From assembly GCA_965219535.1 (NCBI GenBank), contig CBDCNV010000001.1:1890001-1922000 (forward strand): 32,000 bases of DNA, in the 5' to 3' direction. This document shows positions 8,188-15,989 of the stretch, piece by piece (within the stretch, counting starts at the first letter, position 1; each line of letters starts with the position of its first letter). The notes beneath the pieces were generated by a model that was not told where the DNA came from, ran no database searches, and saw only the letters and a list, made by a program, of their open reading frames with translations. Made by a program: the position numbers and the translations under genes. The DNA is from Opitutales bacterium (GTDB taxonomy: Bacteria; Verrucomicrobiota; Verrucomicrobiia; Opitutales; PNEW01).

Positions 8188-9756
8188 GTGAAATCCTCTA
8201 CCCTATTACCGTGGTTAAAAAAAAGAGGTGCGGGTGTCTTACTTCATCCGACCTCTTTTCCCGGCGATACCGGGATCGGTACTTTCGGTGTAGACGCAAT
8301 TAACTTTATAGAATTTCTGCGAGTCAGCGGAATTTCTTATTGGCAACTCTGTTCTCTAGGACCAACAGGGTATGGGGACTCACCTTATCAATGCTTTTCT
8401 GCCTTTGCCGGTAATCCTTATCTCATTGACTTAGACTCCCTCATTCCACATGGCTTCTTAAAATCTAACGACATAAATGACTTACGACAACTACCTGAAG
8501 ATAAAGTTAATTATGGCCGACAGTATTATCTTCGATGGCCTGTCTTGCGATTGGCATTTAAACGTTTTTGGAGCAATGGAGCTTCAGTATCAGAATATGG
8601 AAATTATAATAAATTTAAAAAAGAGAATGCAGAATGGCTCTATCCTTTTGCCTGTTTTATGGCTCTAAAAGGCCATTTCAAAGGACATTCCTGGGTCGAT
8701 TGGGGTCCATCCTATTGTTCCTATGAAAAAGCAAAAAATAGTGATCTTGTAAAAAAGATTGTGGAGAAAATTGAAGCCCATCTTTTTTTTCAGTATCTGT
8801 TTTTTGGCCAATGGGGACAGTTAAAGAAATTTGCTAATCAAAATGGCATTCAAGTAATTGGTGATCTTCCACTCTATGTGTCTTTAGATAGTGCGGATGT
8901 CTGGGCTCAACCAGAATTATTCAAGCTCGATAAGATGCATCGCCCTACTTCAGTAGCGGGTGTTCCACCTGATTACTTTTCACCCACCGGACAGTTATGG
9001 GGCAATCCACTCTATAACTGGAATTACTTAAAATCTAACGCCTATTCATGGTGGATGGATCGGTTAAGACACAACTTTAAGCTCTATGATATCGTTCGAC
9101 TGGATCATTTCCGCGGATTCGAATCTTATTGGGAAGTCCCGATTGGTGATAAAGATGCGCGAAAAGGAAAATGGACCCGAGGACCCGGAATCAATTTTTT
9201 TACTCAACTAAAAAAGCAGCTTCCCAAAGCACAGATAATTGCGGAAGATTTAGGTATTATTACACCCAAGGCGAGAGAGTTACTCGCAAAAACTGGCCTT
9301 CCGGGGATGTGTGTATTACAATTTGCTTTTGAAGATAATGATGCGAATAATTTGTACTTACCGCATAATGTAAATGCGAACAGTGTATTTTATCCTGGCA
9401 CACATGATAATGATACAATCTGGGGATGGTATCGCTCCTCTTCTAAGGAAGTTAAGCATCGAGTCCGTCAGTATCTTGGCGTCCCGGGTGATGATATTGC
9501 ATGGGATATTGTGCGAGCGTCATATTCAACGGTCAGCCGAATTGCGGTTATACCGATGCAAGACTTACTAAATTTAGGAACAAAATCGCGCATGAACACC
9601 CCGGGCCGTACATTCGGAAACTGGCAATGGCGCTATACGCGTGAAGCCATTAGTAATTTACGGCAGAATAGCGCAAGCTACCTCAAGGAACTCGGTGCTA
9701 TATATGGAAGGGTACAGGTATCCCCCTCAATTCCTAAGAAGAAAATCTCGAATTAA
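8188..9756 (+). CDS. malQ: 4-alpha-glucanotransferase (amylomaltase, GH77)
   Basis: 522-aa ORF with a GTG start. Motifs GAGVLLHPTSFPG, VRLDHFRGF, IAEDLG and PGTHDNDT are typical of MalQ. Confidence 0.9.
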   Translation: MKSSTLLPWLKKRGAGVLLHPTSFPGDTGIGTFGVDAINFIEFLRVSGISYWQLCSLGPTGYGDSPYQCFSAFAGNPYLIDLDSLIPHGFLKSNDINDLRQLPEDKVNYGRQYYLRWPVLRLAFKRFWSNGASVSEYGNYNKFKKENAEWLYPFACFMALKGHFKGHSWVDWGPSYCSYEKAKNSDLVKKIVEKIEAHLFFQYLFFGQWGQLKKFANQNGIQVIGDLPLYVSLDSADVWAQPELFKLDKMHRPTSVAGVPPDYFSPTGQLWGNPLYNWNYLKSNAYSWWMDRLRHNFKLYDIVRLDHFRGFESYWEVPIGDKDARKGKWTRGPGINFFTQLKKQLPKAQIIAEDLGIITPKARELLAKTGLPGMCVLQFAFEDNDANNLYLPHNVNANSVFYPGTHDNDTIWGWYRSSSKEVKHRVRQYLGVPGDDIAWDIVRASYSTVSRIAVIPMQDLLNLGTKSRMNTPGRTFGNWQWRYTREAISNLRQNSASYLKELGAIYGRVQVSPSIPKKKISN

Positions 9757-10605
9757 GATCAGAATTTTTTCTCCGCCATCTTCCAAGACATAGTGGCCTC
9801 CATCCGAAAATTTATGTACTTCCGCGGTTGGGTAAGACTTCATCCAGGTTTCTAAAAAATGATCATTAAAGCAGAAATCCTGTTCACCCCAACAGATGAG
9901 AACCTGGTTTTTTTGAAATTCCTGAAGACTGTTTTCAATCTCCTGCATTAAAGGATAACTATTATCTTTTGGCCTCATTGGGATATCCTGGACAAAGCGC
10001 AACTGCGCAATTCGGCTACTCCAATTATGGTAAGGAAAGAGAAAACCTTCTCGAACTTTCCCTTTGAGCCCTCCTTTTTTCGCGGTAGCCATGGTTAATG
10101 CATAGCGAGCAAAAACATTAAATGCGCGGATTAGCACGGCACCTAAGATTGGTGTTCGACACAACTTAATACGTAAAGGAAGTTGCTGCGACAAAAAGGC
10201 TGCGGTGTTTAGAATTATTATTTTCCCTACTCTATCTGGCATATTTTTCGCCAGTCCCATTCCAATTGCGCCACCCCAATCATGGATAACAAGATGAAAA
10301 CGCTTGATGTTTAATTTGCTTACCAGTTGCTCTACATTTGCGATATGCGTTGAAAGACGGTAAGGATAAATCTGAGGTTTACTTGAAAGTCCGCAGCCCA
10401 TGTGATCGGGTGCAACACAACGAAATTGATCACGGAGCTTTAAGACTAAATTACGATAATAAAAAGACCAAGTCGGGTTGCCGTGTAACATCAACACTAC
10501 CTCCCCTTCCCCTTCATCGAGGTAATGCAAACTATTTTCTTTTATACCCAGATAGTGACTATCAAATGGATAAAGGGGATAAAGTGTTTTATTAATTGTA
10601 AGCAT
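9727..10605 (-). CDS. Alpha/beta-fold hydrolase of the haloalkane-dehalogenase / OleB-like type (Asp nucleophile)
   Basis: 292-aa ORF. H41-G-N-P-T-W oxyanion/halide motif, nucleophile elbow VIHD109WGG, acid candidate WGEQD243F and H271 in GGHYV. Last gene of the minus-strand cassette. Its 3' end overlaps malQ by 30 nt. Confidence 0.8.
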   Translation of the reverse strand: MLTINKTLYPLYPFDSHYLGIKENSLHYLDEGEGEVVLMLHGNPTWSFYYRNLVLKLRDQFRCVAPDHMGCGLSSKPQIYPYRLSTHIANVEQLVSKLNIKRFHLVIHDWGGAIGMGLAKNMPDRVGKIIILNTAAFLSQQLPLRIKLCRTPILGAVLIRAFNVFARYALTMATAKKGGLKGKVREGFLFPYHNWSSRIAQLRFVQDIPMRPKDNSYPLMQEIENSLQEFQKNQVLICWGEQDFCFNDHFLETWMKSYPTAEVHKFSDGGHYVLEDGGEKILILIRDFLLRN

Positions 10606-10612
10606 TTAATCA

Positions 10613-11647
10613 TTAAATCGACAATGCCATCATCATGCAGCTAATACCGCTTCCTATACCTAACAATGCGGTATTAGAACCTGATTTCATCAAGCCCTCT
10701 TCTTTTGCCATCGCAAGTGTTAATGGCAGCGATACTGATCCCATATTTCCAAGGAAGCTGAATGTTGAATAGTCTTTATCCAAATCCAACTTAAGGGCAT
10801 TGTAGAGTTGACGTTGGTGAGCTCGGCCAACTTGGTGACAGATAATATGGTCTGGAGTTGATTCATTCCAGAGCGTCTCAGTCTTAAATTTATTCCAAGC
10901 ACGTTCAGCTACTCCTATACCTGCAATGAGAAGCTCTTCTGAATTTGTCTGCATTGCTAACCCTTCTTCAGCTGCAGTATCACCTTCACATAATTCGCTA
11001 TGATTGGTATCAGTTTCGACAATGGCATTTAATATTCTCGGGCAATTCTCATGAGCGAGCGAGGTATGACAAAGAATGAATGCTACCGCTCCTGCACCAA
11101 TAGTGAGATTAGCGAAATAAGGTTTAATTGAATTACGATTCAACTGTGGATTAAGCAAAAGCTTTAATGTGCTTTCAACTAGCGGCCGGCCATTTTCGCC
11201 CGCCACTATCATTGCTCTGCGAATTTGTTTATTCTGGATTAGACTGCCCGCGAGACTCATTGCGTTGAGAAAACCCAGGCAGGCATTAGATACATCAAAA
11301 GTCTGAGTATTTCCACTTAGACCGAGGTGGTGATGGACATAGGATGCGCTCGCAGGTTCCAATCGATCACGACAGACTGCCGCATGAATGAGTAAATCAA
11401 TCTCGTCTTTTTTAATCTGAGATTCAGATAATACTTTTTCTCCAGCTAAAGCACTGGCCTCAGATGGTAAAATAGGGCTGTCCCAGAATCGTCTTTCCTT
11501 AATTCCCGTCATCAATTCGAGGCGACCATGGGGAAGCCGTAAGCGCTCATAAAGGGAACCTAATTTAATTTCGATATCTTCTGAACTCCAGCTTTCGGGG
11601 GGGAGCTCGTAAGCCATCGCTTCGATGCATACGTCTTCGAATCGCAT
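10613..11647 (-). CDS. KAS III-fold thiolase (FabH/OleA-like condensing enzyme)
   Basis: 344-aa ORF. C123 in FDVSNACLGF, H271 in ICHQVG and N301 in FLGNMGSVSLP, plus E97 in CRDRLEPASAS. Lies 7 nt upstream of the hydrolase gene. Confidence 0.8.
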   Translation of the reverse strand: MRFEDVCIEAMAYELPPESWSSEDIEIKLGSLYERLRLPHGRLELMTGIKERRFWDSPILPSEASALAGEKVLSESQIKKDEIDLLIHAAVCRDRLEPASASYVHHHLGLSGNTQTFDVSNACLGFLNAMSLAGSLIQNKQIRRAMIVAGENGRPLVESTLKLLLNPQLNRNSIKPYFANLTIGAGAVAFILCHTSLAHENCPRILNAIVETDTNHSELCEGDTAAEEGLAMQTNSEELLIAGIGVAERAWNKFKTETLWNESTPDHIICHQVGRAHQRQLYNALKLDLDKDYSTFSFLGNMGSVSLPLTLAMAKEEGLMKSGSNTALLGIGSGISCMMMALSI

Positions 11648-11653
11648 CTCTAT

Positions 11654-12460
11654 CTATTTGGGCGGTCGCATGGATAGCTCAACCACTTCGCGATCAAAAT
11701 AGTTTAAGTCCATGCCCGCATTGACCACGATTCCTTGTCCATTTATTCCACTCGCACGTTCACTCAATAAAAATACTGCTGTATCTGAAACCTCCTTCGT
11801 TTCAACTGCTCGTTTACGAAAAGTGAGTTTTTCCGCATAAAGGTAATTTTCCAGATATCCTGGTATTCCAGCTGAAGCACTTGTTTTCAAGGGTGCCGCA
11901 TTCACAGTATTAAAGCGAATAGCTGTATTTTTGCTAAATGACTTTGCGAGATTACGAACACAACCTTCCAAGGCGGATTTAATCGGAGACATATAACCGT
12001 AGTTTTCCGCAGTTACTAAGTCTGAAGAAATACCTATTGAGACCACAGATGCTTGTTCTGTAAGCAGCGGTTTCATTGCACGGACAATTTCAACAAGGGA
12101 AAAAGCTGAAATTGTTGTAGCTTGTAAAAAGTCCTCGCGCTTGGTCTCGTGAAAAGGCTTAAAGCCTTCTGTGTAATTAGCAAAGGCGATAGAATGAACT
12201 ATTCCATCAAGGGAGCTTGTTATCGCCTCTATTTCTTTCGCTAAAAGATCAATCTGTTCTTGATCTTCAACATCGCATGTTAATACGGATTTATCTTTAA
12301 GCAGCTTGGATAATGATTTTTTACGATTTTCAGTACGAACGCTGTAAATAACTTTCGCCCCTTCCTTTTCAAGGGTATTGGCAATACACCACGCAACGCT
12401 TTTCTTGTTCGCAACACCGAATACGAGAAAAGTCTTATTTTCGATTTCGAGAAAACTCAT
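11654..12460 (-). CDS. fabI: FabI-type enoyl-ACP reductase-like SDR
   Basis: 268-aa ORF. FabI-style N-terminus FGVANKKSVAWCIA in place of the classical TGxxxGxG. Tyr-x6-Lys in YGYMSPIKSALE. Lies 6 nt upstream of the KAS III-like gene. It may be a paralogue rather than the housekeeping fabI. Confidence 0.75.
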   Translation of the reverse strand: MSFLEIENKTFLVFGVANKKSVAWCIANTLEKEGAKVIYSVRTENRKKSLSKLLKDKSVLTCDVEDQEQIDLLAKEIEAITSSLDGIVHSIAFANYTEGFKPFHETKREDFLQATTISAFSLVEIVRAMKPLLTEQASVVSIGISSDLVTAENYGYMSPIKSALEGCVRNLAKSFSKNTAIRFNTVNAAPLKTSASAGIPGYLENYLYAEKLTFRKRAVETKEVSDTAVFLLSERASGINGQGIVVNAGMDLNYFDREVVELSMRPPK

Positions 12461-12546: not shown

Positions 12547-12999
12547 TTACCCAATCAAAGCAAGGGCAAAATCAATGCTTAGGACAAGCTTATCCTTTGA
12601 TCTAATAGTCCCTCGCATAAAATGAAATTTGCTCAATGTTTCTTTGAATACGACTTCAGTCGTAATTTTATCACCGGGCCGCACCATATTTTTAAATTTA
12701 GCTTCTTTTATACGCGATAAAATTGGCGTATGATCTTTCAACGAATCATCACCTTGGCTTAATTTATTTTTCAAATAGATAGCTCCTGTCTGAAACACTG
12801 ACTCGCAGAGTAATACGCCGGGCATTAGTGGATTTCCAGGATAATGGCCTTCAAAATAGAATTCATTTTCGCGTATTTCTCTCGTCGTTGTAATTGTCTC
12901 ATCCGTGATATTAACTATCTCGTCGACAAAAAGAAACGGCGGTCGATGGGGGATGCTTTGGTATATTTCCTTCACGAATGATAAGATGATTCGCAACAC
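12547..12999 (-). CDS. fabZ: FabZ-type hotdog-fold 3-hydroxyacyl-ACP dehydratase-like protein
   Basis: 150-aa ORF with a GTG start at 12999. Motifs PHRPPFLFVDEI and FEGHYPGNPLMPGVLLCES carry the catalytic His and Glu context of FabZ. It may be a paralogue. Confidence 0.7.
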   Translation of the reverse strand: MLRIILSFVKEIYQSIPHRPPFLFVDEIVNITDETITTTREIRENEFYFEGHYPGNPLMPGVLLCESVFQTGAIYLKNKLSQGDDSLKDHTPILSRIKEAKFKNMVRPGDKITTEVVFKETLSKFHFMRGTIRSKDKLVLSIDFALALIG

Positions 13000-13049: not shown

Positions 13050-14525
13050 TTAAATGCTTAGGGATGACTTTTGAAATCCCTTATTCACGCTTTTTTTAAA
13101 ATCACTAAGGTATTTATCAATTTTATGTGAAGTAATGACTCCGTAGTTAATAGTTCCTAACCATCCCGACATAATTATCCCTACGGATCCTGCATGGTAA
13201 AGTCCTTTTAGATTCTTGGGAAGATCCATAGATACCTTAAGTCCCTCGAATTTAGTTCCGAATGAAGTCCCTCCCATATGCTTCGTATAATGGTTTATCG
13301 TGCGAGGAGTAGCAGCTTCGATGTGATCTAGTTTGCTTCTAATATCCGGAATAAGCTTTTCCAGAGTGCTTAAAGACTCTTCGATAATGCGGTTCTTCTC
13401 CCGCTTGTAATCTTCTTCCGAGAGCGTGCTCCAATCTTCCCAATTACTGTTTAGTGAACAAACAATACTATATCTAGGTTCTTTGAGATGAGGGCGTGTA
13501 TCTGGATAGTAAAGTGAAAAGGTACGGCTGGAAGTGTGCATATCAACCAGTTCTTCACTCGTAAAATTCTTTGCATCTGAGGTAAATACGAGGTCGCCAA
13601 TAAAGGGGATCTTTTCCCCCTTTTTTACCCCTAAATACACTTGGCAGGAACTTGAATTGATGCGTATTTTATCAGCTTCTTCGACAAAATTTTTGGGGAA
13701 ATTTTCAGGGCCGACCAGTCGTTGAACAGTGTTTTTAATATTGGCATTTGAAAGAATGGCTTTGCAGCGAATCTGTCGGCCATTTACTTTGACTCCCGTA
13801 ATTCGTCTCGTGTTTTCATCTTCAGTAGTGATTATTTTATCCACGAGGCAGCATTTTCGGAGATGAACACCGTTTTTTTCCATTTCTTTTACCATCTTTT
13901 TAATCAAGATATCGGTGCCGCCTCTAAATGTATATACTCCCTTGTTCATGAAGTTAGAAAAAACAATGCCGTAGGTGATAGCTGGATCGTCGAGGGAAGA
14001 ACCATTGGCATAAGCAATGGGCTCCATTAATAGTCGTTTGATATCATCCCGCCCGGGAAAAAACTCTTCGAATAATTCACCCGTCGTTTGTTTTATTTCA
14101 TCATAGAAGTTCATCTTCTTCATATGATTAAAGAAACCTTCTACTTTATCTCTCGCCACTTTGAATCTATCCACAAAAAGACGCGTAAAATCACCTCGAT
14201 CGAATGTCGTCCAAACATTAAATTGCGGATTGATGAAACGCACATTCTTCAATTGAACAATGGAATCGGCAATCTCCTTGGTCCAATATTTCCGGCAAGA
14301 TTTAATCATGCCAATTGGAAAACCATGAAGGGAAATATCAAAAATATGCCCTCCCCTACGGCGAAACCATGTCGCTAGACCACCATATTGATAGTGGTGC
14401 TCTAAAAGCAGCACTGAATGACCACACTTGGCCAGGTAGTTGGCACCCGTTAATCCACCTAATCCACTGCCAATGACAATGACGTCATAATAATCCGAAA
14501 CATCTTTTAACCAATCTCTTGCCAT
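13050..14525 (-). CDS. FAD-dependent oxidoreductase, phytoene-desaturase (CrtI) / amine-oxidase-like
   Basis: 491-aa ORF. N-terminal Rossmann motif [36 protein letters not shown], and a length typical of the CrtI/CrtISO/retinol-saturase-like family. First gene of the cassette. Confidence 0.7.
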
Positions 14526-14723: not shown

Positions 14724-15989
14724 TCAGAAAAAGCGAATTATTATGAAAATAATCCCGAAAGAAATGAAATAAACCAGGCCCAGAATGCTGATTATTCTCA
14801 TTCCCCTGCCCGGTCTAAATTCCTCGGGTGTAAACGGAGATGTAATGAGGCGATAATTGAGGAACGCAAAAACAGGCCCCGCAAGAAATGCAATGGTTGT
14901 AGCCAGATCTACTAATGCAGTCAAACGCTCCAGAAAAGAATTTATAATAATTAAGCTGATCAGGCACCCTATTCCGACCCACACCCATTGTAAGTGACGA
15001 CTGCTCAAGTTTAATTTTTTATAAACCAATTTTAACCCTACAGCCAGGGAACGTGGGTAAGCGTCAATTACCGTCAATGAGGTTGAAAACATCGCGGTAA
15101 AAGCGGCGATTGCGATTACTGGAGTCGCCCACTCCCCCAGGTAATGAGTGTAAAGCTTAACTATTTGCGTGGCAAATTTTGTCCCTGATCTTTCAAGTTC
15201 TACTCCGGATCCGTAAAAAACGAGGTATCCCAACATTAGAAACATAATCGCGAGAACAACAGTAAGGGAAAACCCGAAATTAAAATCAAACATGGCTTCT
15301 TTCAATGATGTTTTTCTCCCCTTTGATTTCTCATTTGCCAAAATCCATAGCGATTGCCACACGGATAACTCAATCGGTGCCGGCATCCAGCCCATAAGGG
15401 CGATGATAAACCCCATATTAGCCATGCTCCAGGCTGATGGCCCTTTATAATCCATTTCTGCGACTGGTCCATGAGCCAGGGCCACGATGAATGCCATCAC
15501 CGTAGCAATAAAAAGGAGCGCCATGATAGCTTTTATACAATAATCTAACCATTTATAGTGCCCGACGATAATTATTGCTGCACAAATCCCCATCAATCCG
15601 ACGCTGTAGACCGTTTCGCTAAAATTTATATCCAATAGATTATGCGCTAATCCAGCGGTTACAAAAGTTACAGCTGCAATACTGATGATGGCACTGATGA
15701 AATTTAAGAATAAGAAGGCATAGAGATAACCTAGCCCCAATCGGCGGTAACCGTGCATGAGACTTTCTCCTGTTGCCACCGCATAGCGATGTCCATATTC
15801 AAAAAAAGGATATTTAAAACAATTAACGAGGAGGATAACAATTATCAATTGCGTGCCATAATTGGCTCCTGCTCTCGTTGATTGAACAAGATGTGATACG
15901 CCAATAGCTGCTCCGGCCATCAGCAATCCAGGTCCTATTGCTTTTCCTAGTTTATATCTAGAAGATTCATTATCCATATAGATGGACAA
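14724..15989 (-). CDS. NRAMP-family-like polytopic membrane transporter (divergent)
   Basis: 421-aa ORF, highly hydrophobic with multiple TM segments. GPGLLMAG(A)AIG motif near the N-terminus and GWMPAP mid-protein resemble NRAMP TM1/TM6 motifs. The track start is TTG; the ATG at 15977 (MDNESS...) is a more likely start. Confidence 0.6.
   Translation of the reverse strand: MSIYMDNESSRYKLGKAIGPGLLMAGAAIGVSHLVQSTRAGANYGTQLIIVILLVNCFKYPFFEYGHRYAVATGESLMHGYRRLGLGYLYAFLFLNFISAIISIAAVTFVTAGLAHNLLDINFSETVYSVGLMGICAAIIIVGHYKWLDYCIKAIMALLFIATVMAFIVALAHGPVAEMDYKGPSAWSMANMGFIIALMGWMPAPIELSVWQSLWILANEKSKGRKTSLKEAMFDFNFGFSLTVVLAIMFLMLGYLVFYGSGVELERSGTKFATQIVKLYTHYLGEWATPVIAIAAFTAMFSTSLTVIDAYPRSLAVGLKLVYKKLNLSSRHLQWVWVGIGCLISLIIINSFLERLTALVDLATTIAFLAGPVFAFLNYRLITSPFTPEEFRPGRGMRIISILGLVYFISFGIIFIIIRFF

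Follow-up and report, generated by a model that had tools for sequence, protein, structure and literature searches.

Does a homologue of beta-ketoacyl-ACP synthase III (KAS III; ACP, acyl carrier protein) encoded by an Opitutales bacterium start fatty acid synthesis, as FabH does, or does it join two acyl chains head to head, as OleA does? The question is raised by a 32,000-nucleotide stretch of DNA (hereafter the window; GenBank assembly GCA_965219535.1, contig CBDCNV010000001.1, positions 1,890,001 to 1,922,000), in which an open reading frame (ORF) at positions 10613-11647 encodes a protein of 344 amino acids (aa). An earlier note on this DNA had argued for a non-decarboxylative head-to-head Claisen enzyme rather than an initiator of fatty acid synthesis. 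We found that the protein is a member of the OleA family by sequence, profile and fold. Alignment, hidden Markov model (HMM) scores, fold and gene context all argue for the view taken in the note. Judging from sequence, the ORF very probably encodes a homodimeric OleA, that is, a non-decarboxylative head-to-head Claisen thiolase (acyl-CoA:acyl-CoA alkyltransferase; CoA, coenzyme A), which would start the Ole olefin pathway.

The gene, oleA, is defined by its ORF and by matches to the family model NF006720, to PDB sequences and to Foldseek structures. The ORF exists as noted earlier; the strand, which had been left unstated, is the minus strand, and the start codon is ATG. A direct check located all four residues that had been read in the product, namely the triad Cys123-His271-Asn301 and, in addition, Glu97, which is followed by Pro98. 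Glu97 (codon GAA, 11357-11359, minus strand) lies in CRDRLEPASAS and is the equivalent of Glu117 of Xanthomonas campestris OleA. Cys123 (TGC, 11279-11281, minus), in DVSNACLGF, corresponds to Cys143, the acyl-enzyme nucleophile, while His271 (CAC, 10835-10837, minus), in ICHQVG, and Asn301 (AAT, 10745-10747, minus), in FLGNMGS, correspond to the oxyanion hole residues His285 and Asn315. The spacings are identical in the two proteins, as had been claimed, with 26 residues from Glu to Cys (117 to 143 in X. campestris) and 30 from His to Asn (285 to 315). The 358-aa PDB chains of X. campestris OleA carry a 20-residue tag, so that residue 21 of the chain corresponds to the native Met1. The published numbers count this tag, and the glutamate and the cysteine are thus E97 and C123 in native X. 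campestris numbering as well. In the X. campestris enzyme, Glu117 is described as the general base, which enters the partner subunit's active site (PMC8180931, PMC7064751).

The placement of Glu97 was supported by three methods. In HMMER alignments with PDB chains, it fell in the column of Glu117 of X. campestris OleA, at which the E117D mutant chain 5VXH carries Asp, and L96-E97-P98 lined up with L-E117-P of that enzyme. A MAFFT alignment that included Escherichia coli FabH and the FabH of the same genome also put E97-P98 on the OleA Glu-Pro column. In this alignment, E. coli FabH has Phe87 at the position and the FabH of the genome itself has Thr, in line with the earlier statement that the E. 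coli protein has no acidic residue there. An AlphaFold2 model, too, could be superposed on OleA over all 344 alignment columns. A position of Glu97 away from the OleA glutamate, which the note had named as evidence that would speak against its proposal, was thus not observed. We also determined how well the pair is kept in the family, using the best 150 representatives of clusters at 50% identity, 117 of which are full length. Glu occupied the column in 116 of these 117 sequences and was followed by Pro in all 117; in a 48-sequence alignment with identities down to 28%, Glu-Pro occurred without exception. Since E97-P98 shares its column with the OleA Glu-Pro and is kept in both samples, it is not a chance motif. 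In all but two of the OleA proteins tested, position 117 was reported to be a glutamate with proline as the next residue, and, within the thiolase superfamily, this general base reaching across from the other subunit was described as unique to OleA (PMC7064751). The Glu-Pro pair has been named an OleA hallmark, and the Opitutae are among the classes bearing OleA (PMC7064751, PMC8180931, PMC5673642).

Family models gave the same assignment. The protein scored 418.8 bits on NF006720 (cut-off 285), versus 86.7 bits on TIGR00747 (cut-off 292) and 103.6 bits on NF006829 (cut-off 249), both of which are FabH models. The characterized X. campestris OleA, used as a control, reached 469.8 bits on NF006720 and 113.0 and 127.9 bits on TIGR00747 and NF006829, respectively. 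For the FabH of the genome itself, encoded by a second KAS III gene (C1:675944-676975), the corresponding values were 136, 424.7 and 440.6 bits. The scores on NF006720 and on the FabH models contradict a grouping of the protein with FabH, which had been listed earlier as another possible refutation. A FastTree tree of the family, which had two FabH outgroups only, added little beyond the HMM scores, and its support values were not relied on. In the PDB, the best matches were 12 distinct sequences, all from the Xanthomonas OleA family and all aligned over the full length with E values of about 1e-57; they comprise X. campestris OleA (3ROW, 4KTI, 5VX*, 6B2*) and X. oryzae 3FK5, which was deposited as 3-oxoacyl synthase III/FabH. 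FabH proteins followed at E values of 1e-17 and weaker.

The predicted fold was consistent with these assignments. The AlphaFold2 monomer model had a mean predicted local distance difference test score (pLDDT) of 90.4, and ranks 1-28 of a Foldseek search of the PDB were taken by 27 X. campestris OleA chains and 3FK5, with template modelling (TM) scores of 0.90-0.95 and root mean square deviations (rmsd) of 1.6-2.0 Å over 344 columns. The best superposition on X. campestris OleA had a TM score of 0.94-0.95 and an rmsd of 1.6 Å. FabH structures appeared from rank 29 on, with TM scores of about 0.8 and an rmsd of 3.3-4.0 Å.

Could the protein nevertheless be a FabH-type (KAS III) initiator that condenses decarboxylatively with malonyl-ACP? 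Pfam reports only generic ACP_syn_III domains, NF006720 (PRK09258) itself bears the title "3-oxoacyl-ACP synthase III", and FabZ-like and FabI-like genes adjoin oleA, all of which would suit such a role. However, the characterized OleA of X. campestris matches NF006720 as well, and the FabH models stay at 87-104 bits against cut-offs of 249-292. The thiolase fold and the Cys-His-Asn triad are common to the protein and E. coli FabH (1HN9/1EBL), but the two share only 24-25% identity, FabH carries Phe87 or Thr where the protein has Glu97 and lacks two insertions of the OleA type, and the fit of the model is closer to OleA (1.6 Å) than to FabH (3.3-4.0 Å). Moreover, a separate, true FabH is encoded elsewhere in the genome, and the protein is therefore not needed as an initiator of fatty acid synthesis. 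We consider the FabH reading highly improbable. A head-to-head ketosynthase of the StlD/DarB type was rejected on its scores (23.5 bits on NF005293 and 21.6 bits on NF053539, with cut-offs of 450 and 550), and the PqsD and hydroxymethylglutaryl-CoA synthase readings gave marginal scores only.

If the protein is an OleA, partner enzymes would be expected in the same genome, and we found candidates for all of them. Directly downstream, on the same strand, an oleB-like gene (9727-10605, minus) starts 7 bp past the oleA stop and encodes a 292-aa alpha/beta hydrolase of the type of haloalkane dehalogenase (HLD) subfamily III. This hydrolase matched Abhydrolase_1 (92.9 bits) as well as models of haloalkane dehalogenases, and its best PDB match was DhmeA (8CKP, E value of 1e-42), a haloalkane-dehalogenase-like protein of subfamily III. 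OleB of X. campestris, a beta-lactone decarboxylase, was described as a putative member of the same subfamily (PMC10503415). Neither oleC nor oleD lies within the window; a whole-genome search located them side by side on contig C2. The oleC gene (C2:185944-187605) encodes 553 aa that score 636.9 bits on NF006754 (cut-off 478); the next matches are two equivalog models for olefin beta-lactone synthetases (520 and 492 bits, both under their strict cut-offs). For oleD (C2:187621-188622; 333 aa), the best models were two 2-alkyl-3-oxoalkanoate reductase equivalogs (387 and 383 bits). The oleC-oleD pair (C2:185944-188622) has purE-purK on its upstream side and a glycosyltransferase-like gene on its downstream side.

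Co-occurrence of the four genes was examined in 43 genomes of the phylum Verrucomicrobiota. OleA, OleB, OleC and OleD were found together in 20 of them, that is, in the genome analysed here, in 18 more of the same order and in one of another class (G070), and 19 genomes had none of the four. In one genome, G072, C and D are present but neither A nor B nor the FabI-like gene is; as these three adjoin one another elsewhere, their absence is probably due to a missing contig. The remaining cases are three genomes (G073, G079 and G100) of a genus, g57, of another class of the phylum, in which an OleA-like gene (NF006720, 366-387 bits) is present without oleB, oleC or oleD. The adjacency of oleB, the presence of oleC-oleD in the genome and the co-occurrence of the four genes lend independent support to the OleA reading.

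By homology to X. campestris OleA, we infer the activity, dimer geometry, substrates and product of the enzyme. In X. campestris OleA, channel A holds the chain that is bound to C143; E117 of the other subunit takes a proton from this chain, which then attacks the acyl-CoA located in channel B, and H285 and N315 form the oxyanion hole (PMC8180931). The Opitutales enzyme would likewise act as a homodimer, with a first acyl chain moving onto Cys123. Glu97 of the partner subunit would take the alpha-proton of the Cys123-bound chain, the resulting enolate would be stabilized by His271 and Asn301, and the carbanion would attack a second acyl-CoA at its thioester carbonyl to give a 2-alkyl-3-ketoacid. 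This product would then be reduced by OleD (C2:187621-188622) and closed to a beta-lactone by OleC (C2:185944-187605), and the adjacent OleB-like hydrolase would decarboxylate the beta-lactone to a cis-olefin.

Several observations weigh against this assignment. The printed OleA motif [LIVYF]-E-P-X-X-[VIL] (PMC8180931) is matched here as L-E-P only, with Ala at the last position, although X. campestris OleA itself also has Ala there. The loop that carries E97 has the second-lowest confidence of the AlphaFold2 model (pLDDT of about 72), and the cross-subunit placement of E97 is one that we infer from the 1.6 Å superposition of a monomer model. OleC and OleD both remain under the strict equivalog cut-offs, OleC with 520 versus 900 bits and OleD with its 387 and 383 bits versus 580 (the next model for OleD scores 145 bits). 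Their genes are unlinked to oleA, unlike those of most described clusters, which are contiguous. Finally, the OleA-like gene of genus g57 occurs without oleBCD, and family membership alone is therefore no guarantee of an olefin product.

These last two points also suit a condensing enzyme of the OleA family that yields something other than an olefin. Such a product might be a long-chain ketone formed by spontaneous decarboxylation, a beta-lactone, as made by oleACD clusters without oleB (PMC7064751), or a 2-alkyl-branched acid. In the last case, the FabZ-like and FabI-like enzymes would act on the reduced condensation product. A non-olefin product of any of these kinds would also fit genus g57, which has FabI-like and CrtI-like genes besides its OleA-like gene and lacks oleBCD. 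Against this, the usual substrates of FabZ and FabI enzymes are ACP thioesters rather than free 2-alkyl acids. All four ole genes are present in the genome, with oleB only 7 bp from oleA, and each of the 20 positive genomes carries the full set of A, B, C and D. A non-olefin product is thus improbable in our estimation, if somewhat less so than a FabH function, and the olefin pathway stays the preferred interpretation.

The separation of oleAB from oleCD was not peculiar to this genome. We examined 104 loci, all from Opitutales (Opitutaceae, Puniceicoccaceae, Coraliomargaritaceae, Lentimonas and "Ca. Moanabacter" are among the named relatives), and at none of them was oleC or oleD found within 10 kb of oleA. 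In relatives in which oleA and oleCD are on one contig (G054, G060, G099 and G070), the two are 0.4-2.3 Mb apart. The gene contexts listed previously are contiguous oleABCD, oleBC fusions and oleACD (PMC7064751). The oleAB/oleCD split is the rule across Opitutales, and this arrangement is absent from those context types. In one genome (G033), the OleC match (C97:8404-10008) lies inside an 821-aa open frame versus the usual length of about 550 aa, and oleB does not adjoin oleA.

In the window, oleA and oleB are the last two genes of a five-gene run on the minus strand, which extends from 14525 to 9727 in the order CrtI-like, FabZ-like, FabI-like, oleA and oleB-like, with gaps of 50, 86, 6 and 7 bp. 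The first gene (13050-14525, minus) encodes a 491-aa flavin adenine dinucleotide-dependent flavoenzyme of the CrtI/CrtISO family with Amino_oxidase and NAD_binding_8 matches; on carot_isom it scored 120 bits (cut-off 587). The second (12547-12999, minus) encodes a FabZ/FabA-like hotdog dehydratase of 150 aa (PF07977, 82 bits), which is slightly under the cut-offs of the FabZ models and whose position is kept in relatives. The third (11654-12460, minus) encodes a FabI-like enoyl reductase of 268 aa from the short-chain dehydrogenase/reductase group (adh_short_C2, 201 bits); it reached at most 192 bits on FabI models, under their cut-offs, and 6 bp separate its stop from the start of oleA.

This neighbourhood recurs in the order. 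Among the 104 loci, the gene order CrtI-FabZ-FabI-OleA-OleB was seen at 34, and at 24 an eight-gene array was found, in which genes for a ketosynthase (KS), an ACP and another CrtI-like protein (CrtI#2) precede it (KS-ACP-CrtI#2-CrtI-FabZ-FabI-OleA-OleB). FabZ-FabI-OleA-OleB accounted for 18 loci and OleA-OleB alone for 11, the remaining 17 being distributed over eight rarer gene orders. The codirectional run from the CrtI-like gene to OleB, with or without KS-ACP-CrtI#2 upstream, was present at 59 loci in total. CrtI-like orthologues (64-69% identity) were found in 20/20 sampled Opitutales, including the genome analysed here and G072, which has no oleA match. FabI-like orthologues (63-71% identity) were found in 19/20, only G072 being without one, and adjoin oleA in most. 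Genus g57 has orthologues of both at about 50% identity, which are not clustered with its OleA-like gene. Beyond Opitutales and g57, none of the other sampled genomes had a FabI-like or CrtI-like orthologue, and G070 lacks both.

The genome itself also holds the genes that complete the longer array; here, the eight genes are spread over three loci. A KS (416 aa), an ACP (112-aa ORF) and a CrtI#2 (477 aa) are encoded in a row at C1:1354775-1357764 on the plus strand, 545 kb from the window, and share 59-77% identity with their counterparts in the eight-gene arrays. An IS481-like transposase gene follows this trio on the opposite strand. As for general fatty acid synthesis, the genome search identified, besides FabH, a FabF-like KS and a FabZ paralogue-KS pair at C2:202123-203884, as well as a FabV-type enoyl reductase (C2:2102952-2103659), and found no FabK- or PfaD-like gene. 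Since FabH, FabF-like, FabV and further FabZ paralogues are present, the cassette genes look additional to housekeeping fatty acid synthesis. We also considered that the cassette FabI-like gene (11654-12460) is the sole housekeeping enoyl reductase; this is made less likely by the presence of FabV. No FabK was found.

What, then, might the additional genes do? OleA could condense chains of a special kind, such as polyunsaturated ones or ones with some other modification, rather than ordinary fatty acyl-CoAs. These chains would be built by a dedicated type II system made up of a private KS and ACP, two CrtI-like enzymes and the FabZ-like and FabI-like enzymes, and possibly delivered on this ACP. 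Such a system would account for the 59 loci with the CrtI-like-FabZ-FabI-OleA-OleB run and the 18 more with FabZ-FabI-OleA-OleB, for the extension of the run by KS-ACP-CrtI#2 at 24 loci and for the trio orthologues in the genome itself. It would also suit the confinement of the FabI-like and CrtI-like genes to genomes with an OleA-family gene (G072, which has no oleA match, has the CrtI-like gene), the cassette's not being obviously housekeeping next to FabH, FabF-like, FabV and further FabZ paralogues, and the failure to find a FabK- or PfaD-like gene. On the other hand, the role of the extra genes is putative, and 11 Opitutales loci have oleA-oleB alone, while G070 has OleABCD without FabI-like and CrtI-like genes. 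The cassette gene is the only FabI-family gene found in the genome, and its product could still serve general fatty acid synthesis. Because nearly all of the co-occurrence comes from one monophyletic order, it represents few independent events, and its statistical support is thin. We therefore regard special substrates as a possibility, though a rather doubtful one, beside the condensation of ordinary acyl-CoAs by OleA. In the same tentative way, OleA-OleB of Opitutales may be the output end of an undescribed lipid line of discrete enzymes (KS, ACP, two CrtI-family enzymes, FabZ-like and FabI-like). It is conceivable, but on balance unlikely, that this line makes unusual, e.g., polyunsaturated, chains for head-to-head condensation without a Pfa-type polyunsaturated fatty acid synthase. 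Our literature search on ole genes together with a phytoene desaturase or an enoyl reductase returned nothing relevant, and we found no description of this arrangement.

Compared with known systems, the protein is closest in kind to X. campestris OleA (PDB 3ROW, 4KU3, 5VXD-5VXI and 6B2R-6B2U). The two are 35% identical over their full length and fall in the same length class. They have in common the Cys-His-Asn triad with identical spacings, the Leu-Glu-Pro segment, the match to NF006720, the fold (TM score of 0.95, rmsd of 1.6 Å) and the two insertions relative to FabH (residues 152-159 and 172-177 of the Opitutales protein). They differ by a short insertion of about five residues near residues 226-230, and in gene context, the neighbours here being FabI-, FabZ- and CrtI-like genes instead of oleBCD, with oleC and oleD not adjacent. 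With the oleABCD pathway of Xanthomonas, Shewanella and Micrococcus (PMC7064751, PMC5673642, PMC7158056), the genome shares all four gene types, but its oleA-oleB and oleC-oleD pairs are on different contigs. By their description, LstAB and NltAB (lipstatin and nocardiolactone) belong to the same family and use head-to-head Claisen chemistry (PMC8180931, PMC7064751), whereas their clusters, from which oleB is missing, lead to beta-lactones. In the genome analysed here, a single oleA stands beside an oleB-like gene.

OleA has already been reported in Verrucomicrobia and Opitutae (PMC5673642, PMC7064751, PMC7158056). Less ordinary are two features, the separation of oleAB from oleCD throughout the order and the joining of oleAB with genes of the FabI-, FabZ- and CrtI-like types, to which some relatives add a KS and an ACP. 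The generic label "3-oxoacyl-ACP synthase III" can probably be corrected to the specific function of OleA, and the genome encodes a complete head-to-head olefin pathway although it has no oleABCD cluster in a single place. Surveys that demand flanking oleCD, or that count oleC alone, would miss or misjudge such split pathways. The link of oleAB to FabI-, FabZ- and CrtI-like genes, and to KS and ACP in relatives, offers a lead on the substrate source of some olefin pathways.

Some further features surround the cassette. When the cassette was scanned for promoters and terminators, no signal exceeded the chance level and no terminator was seen within it on the minus strand, which showed no site resembling a terminator between 9400 and 15000. 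Just upstream, on the cassette strand, lies a gene for an Nramp-like membrane protein (14724-15989), a weak assignment (Pfam, 42 bits; NF037982, 50.6 bits with a cut-off of 50), which is not conserved at this place in Coraliomargarita or in the P0010 lineage. At the other end, malQ (8188-9756, plus) and the oleB-like gene (9727-10605, minus) overlap by 30 nucleotides at their 3' ends (9727-9756), which leaves no room for a terminator between the two genes.

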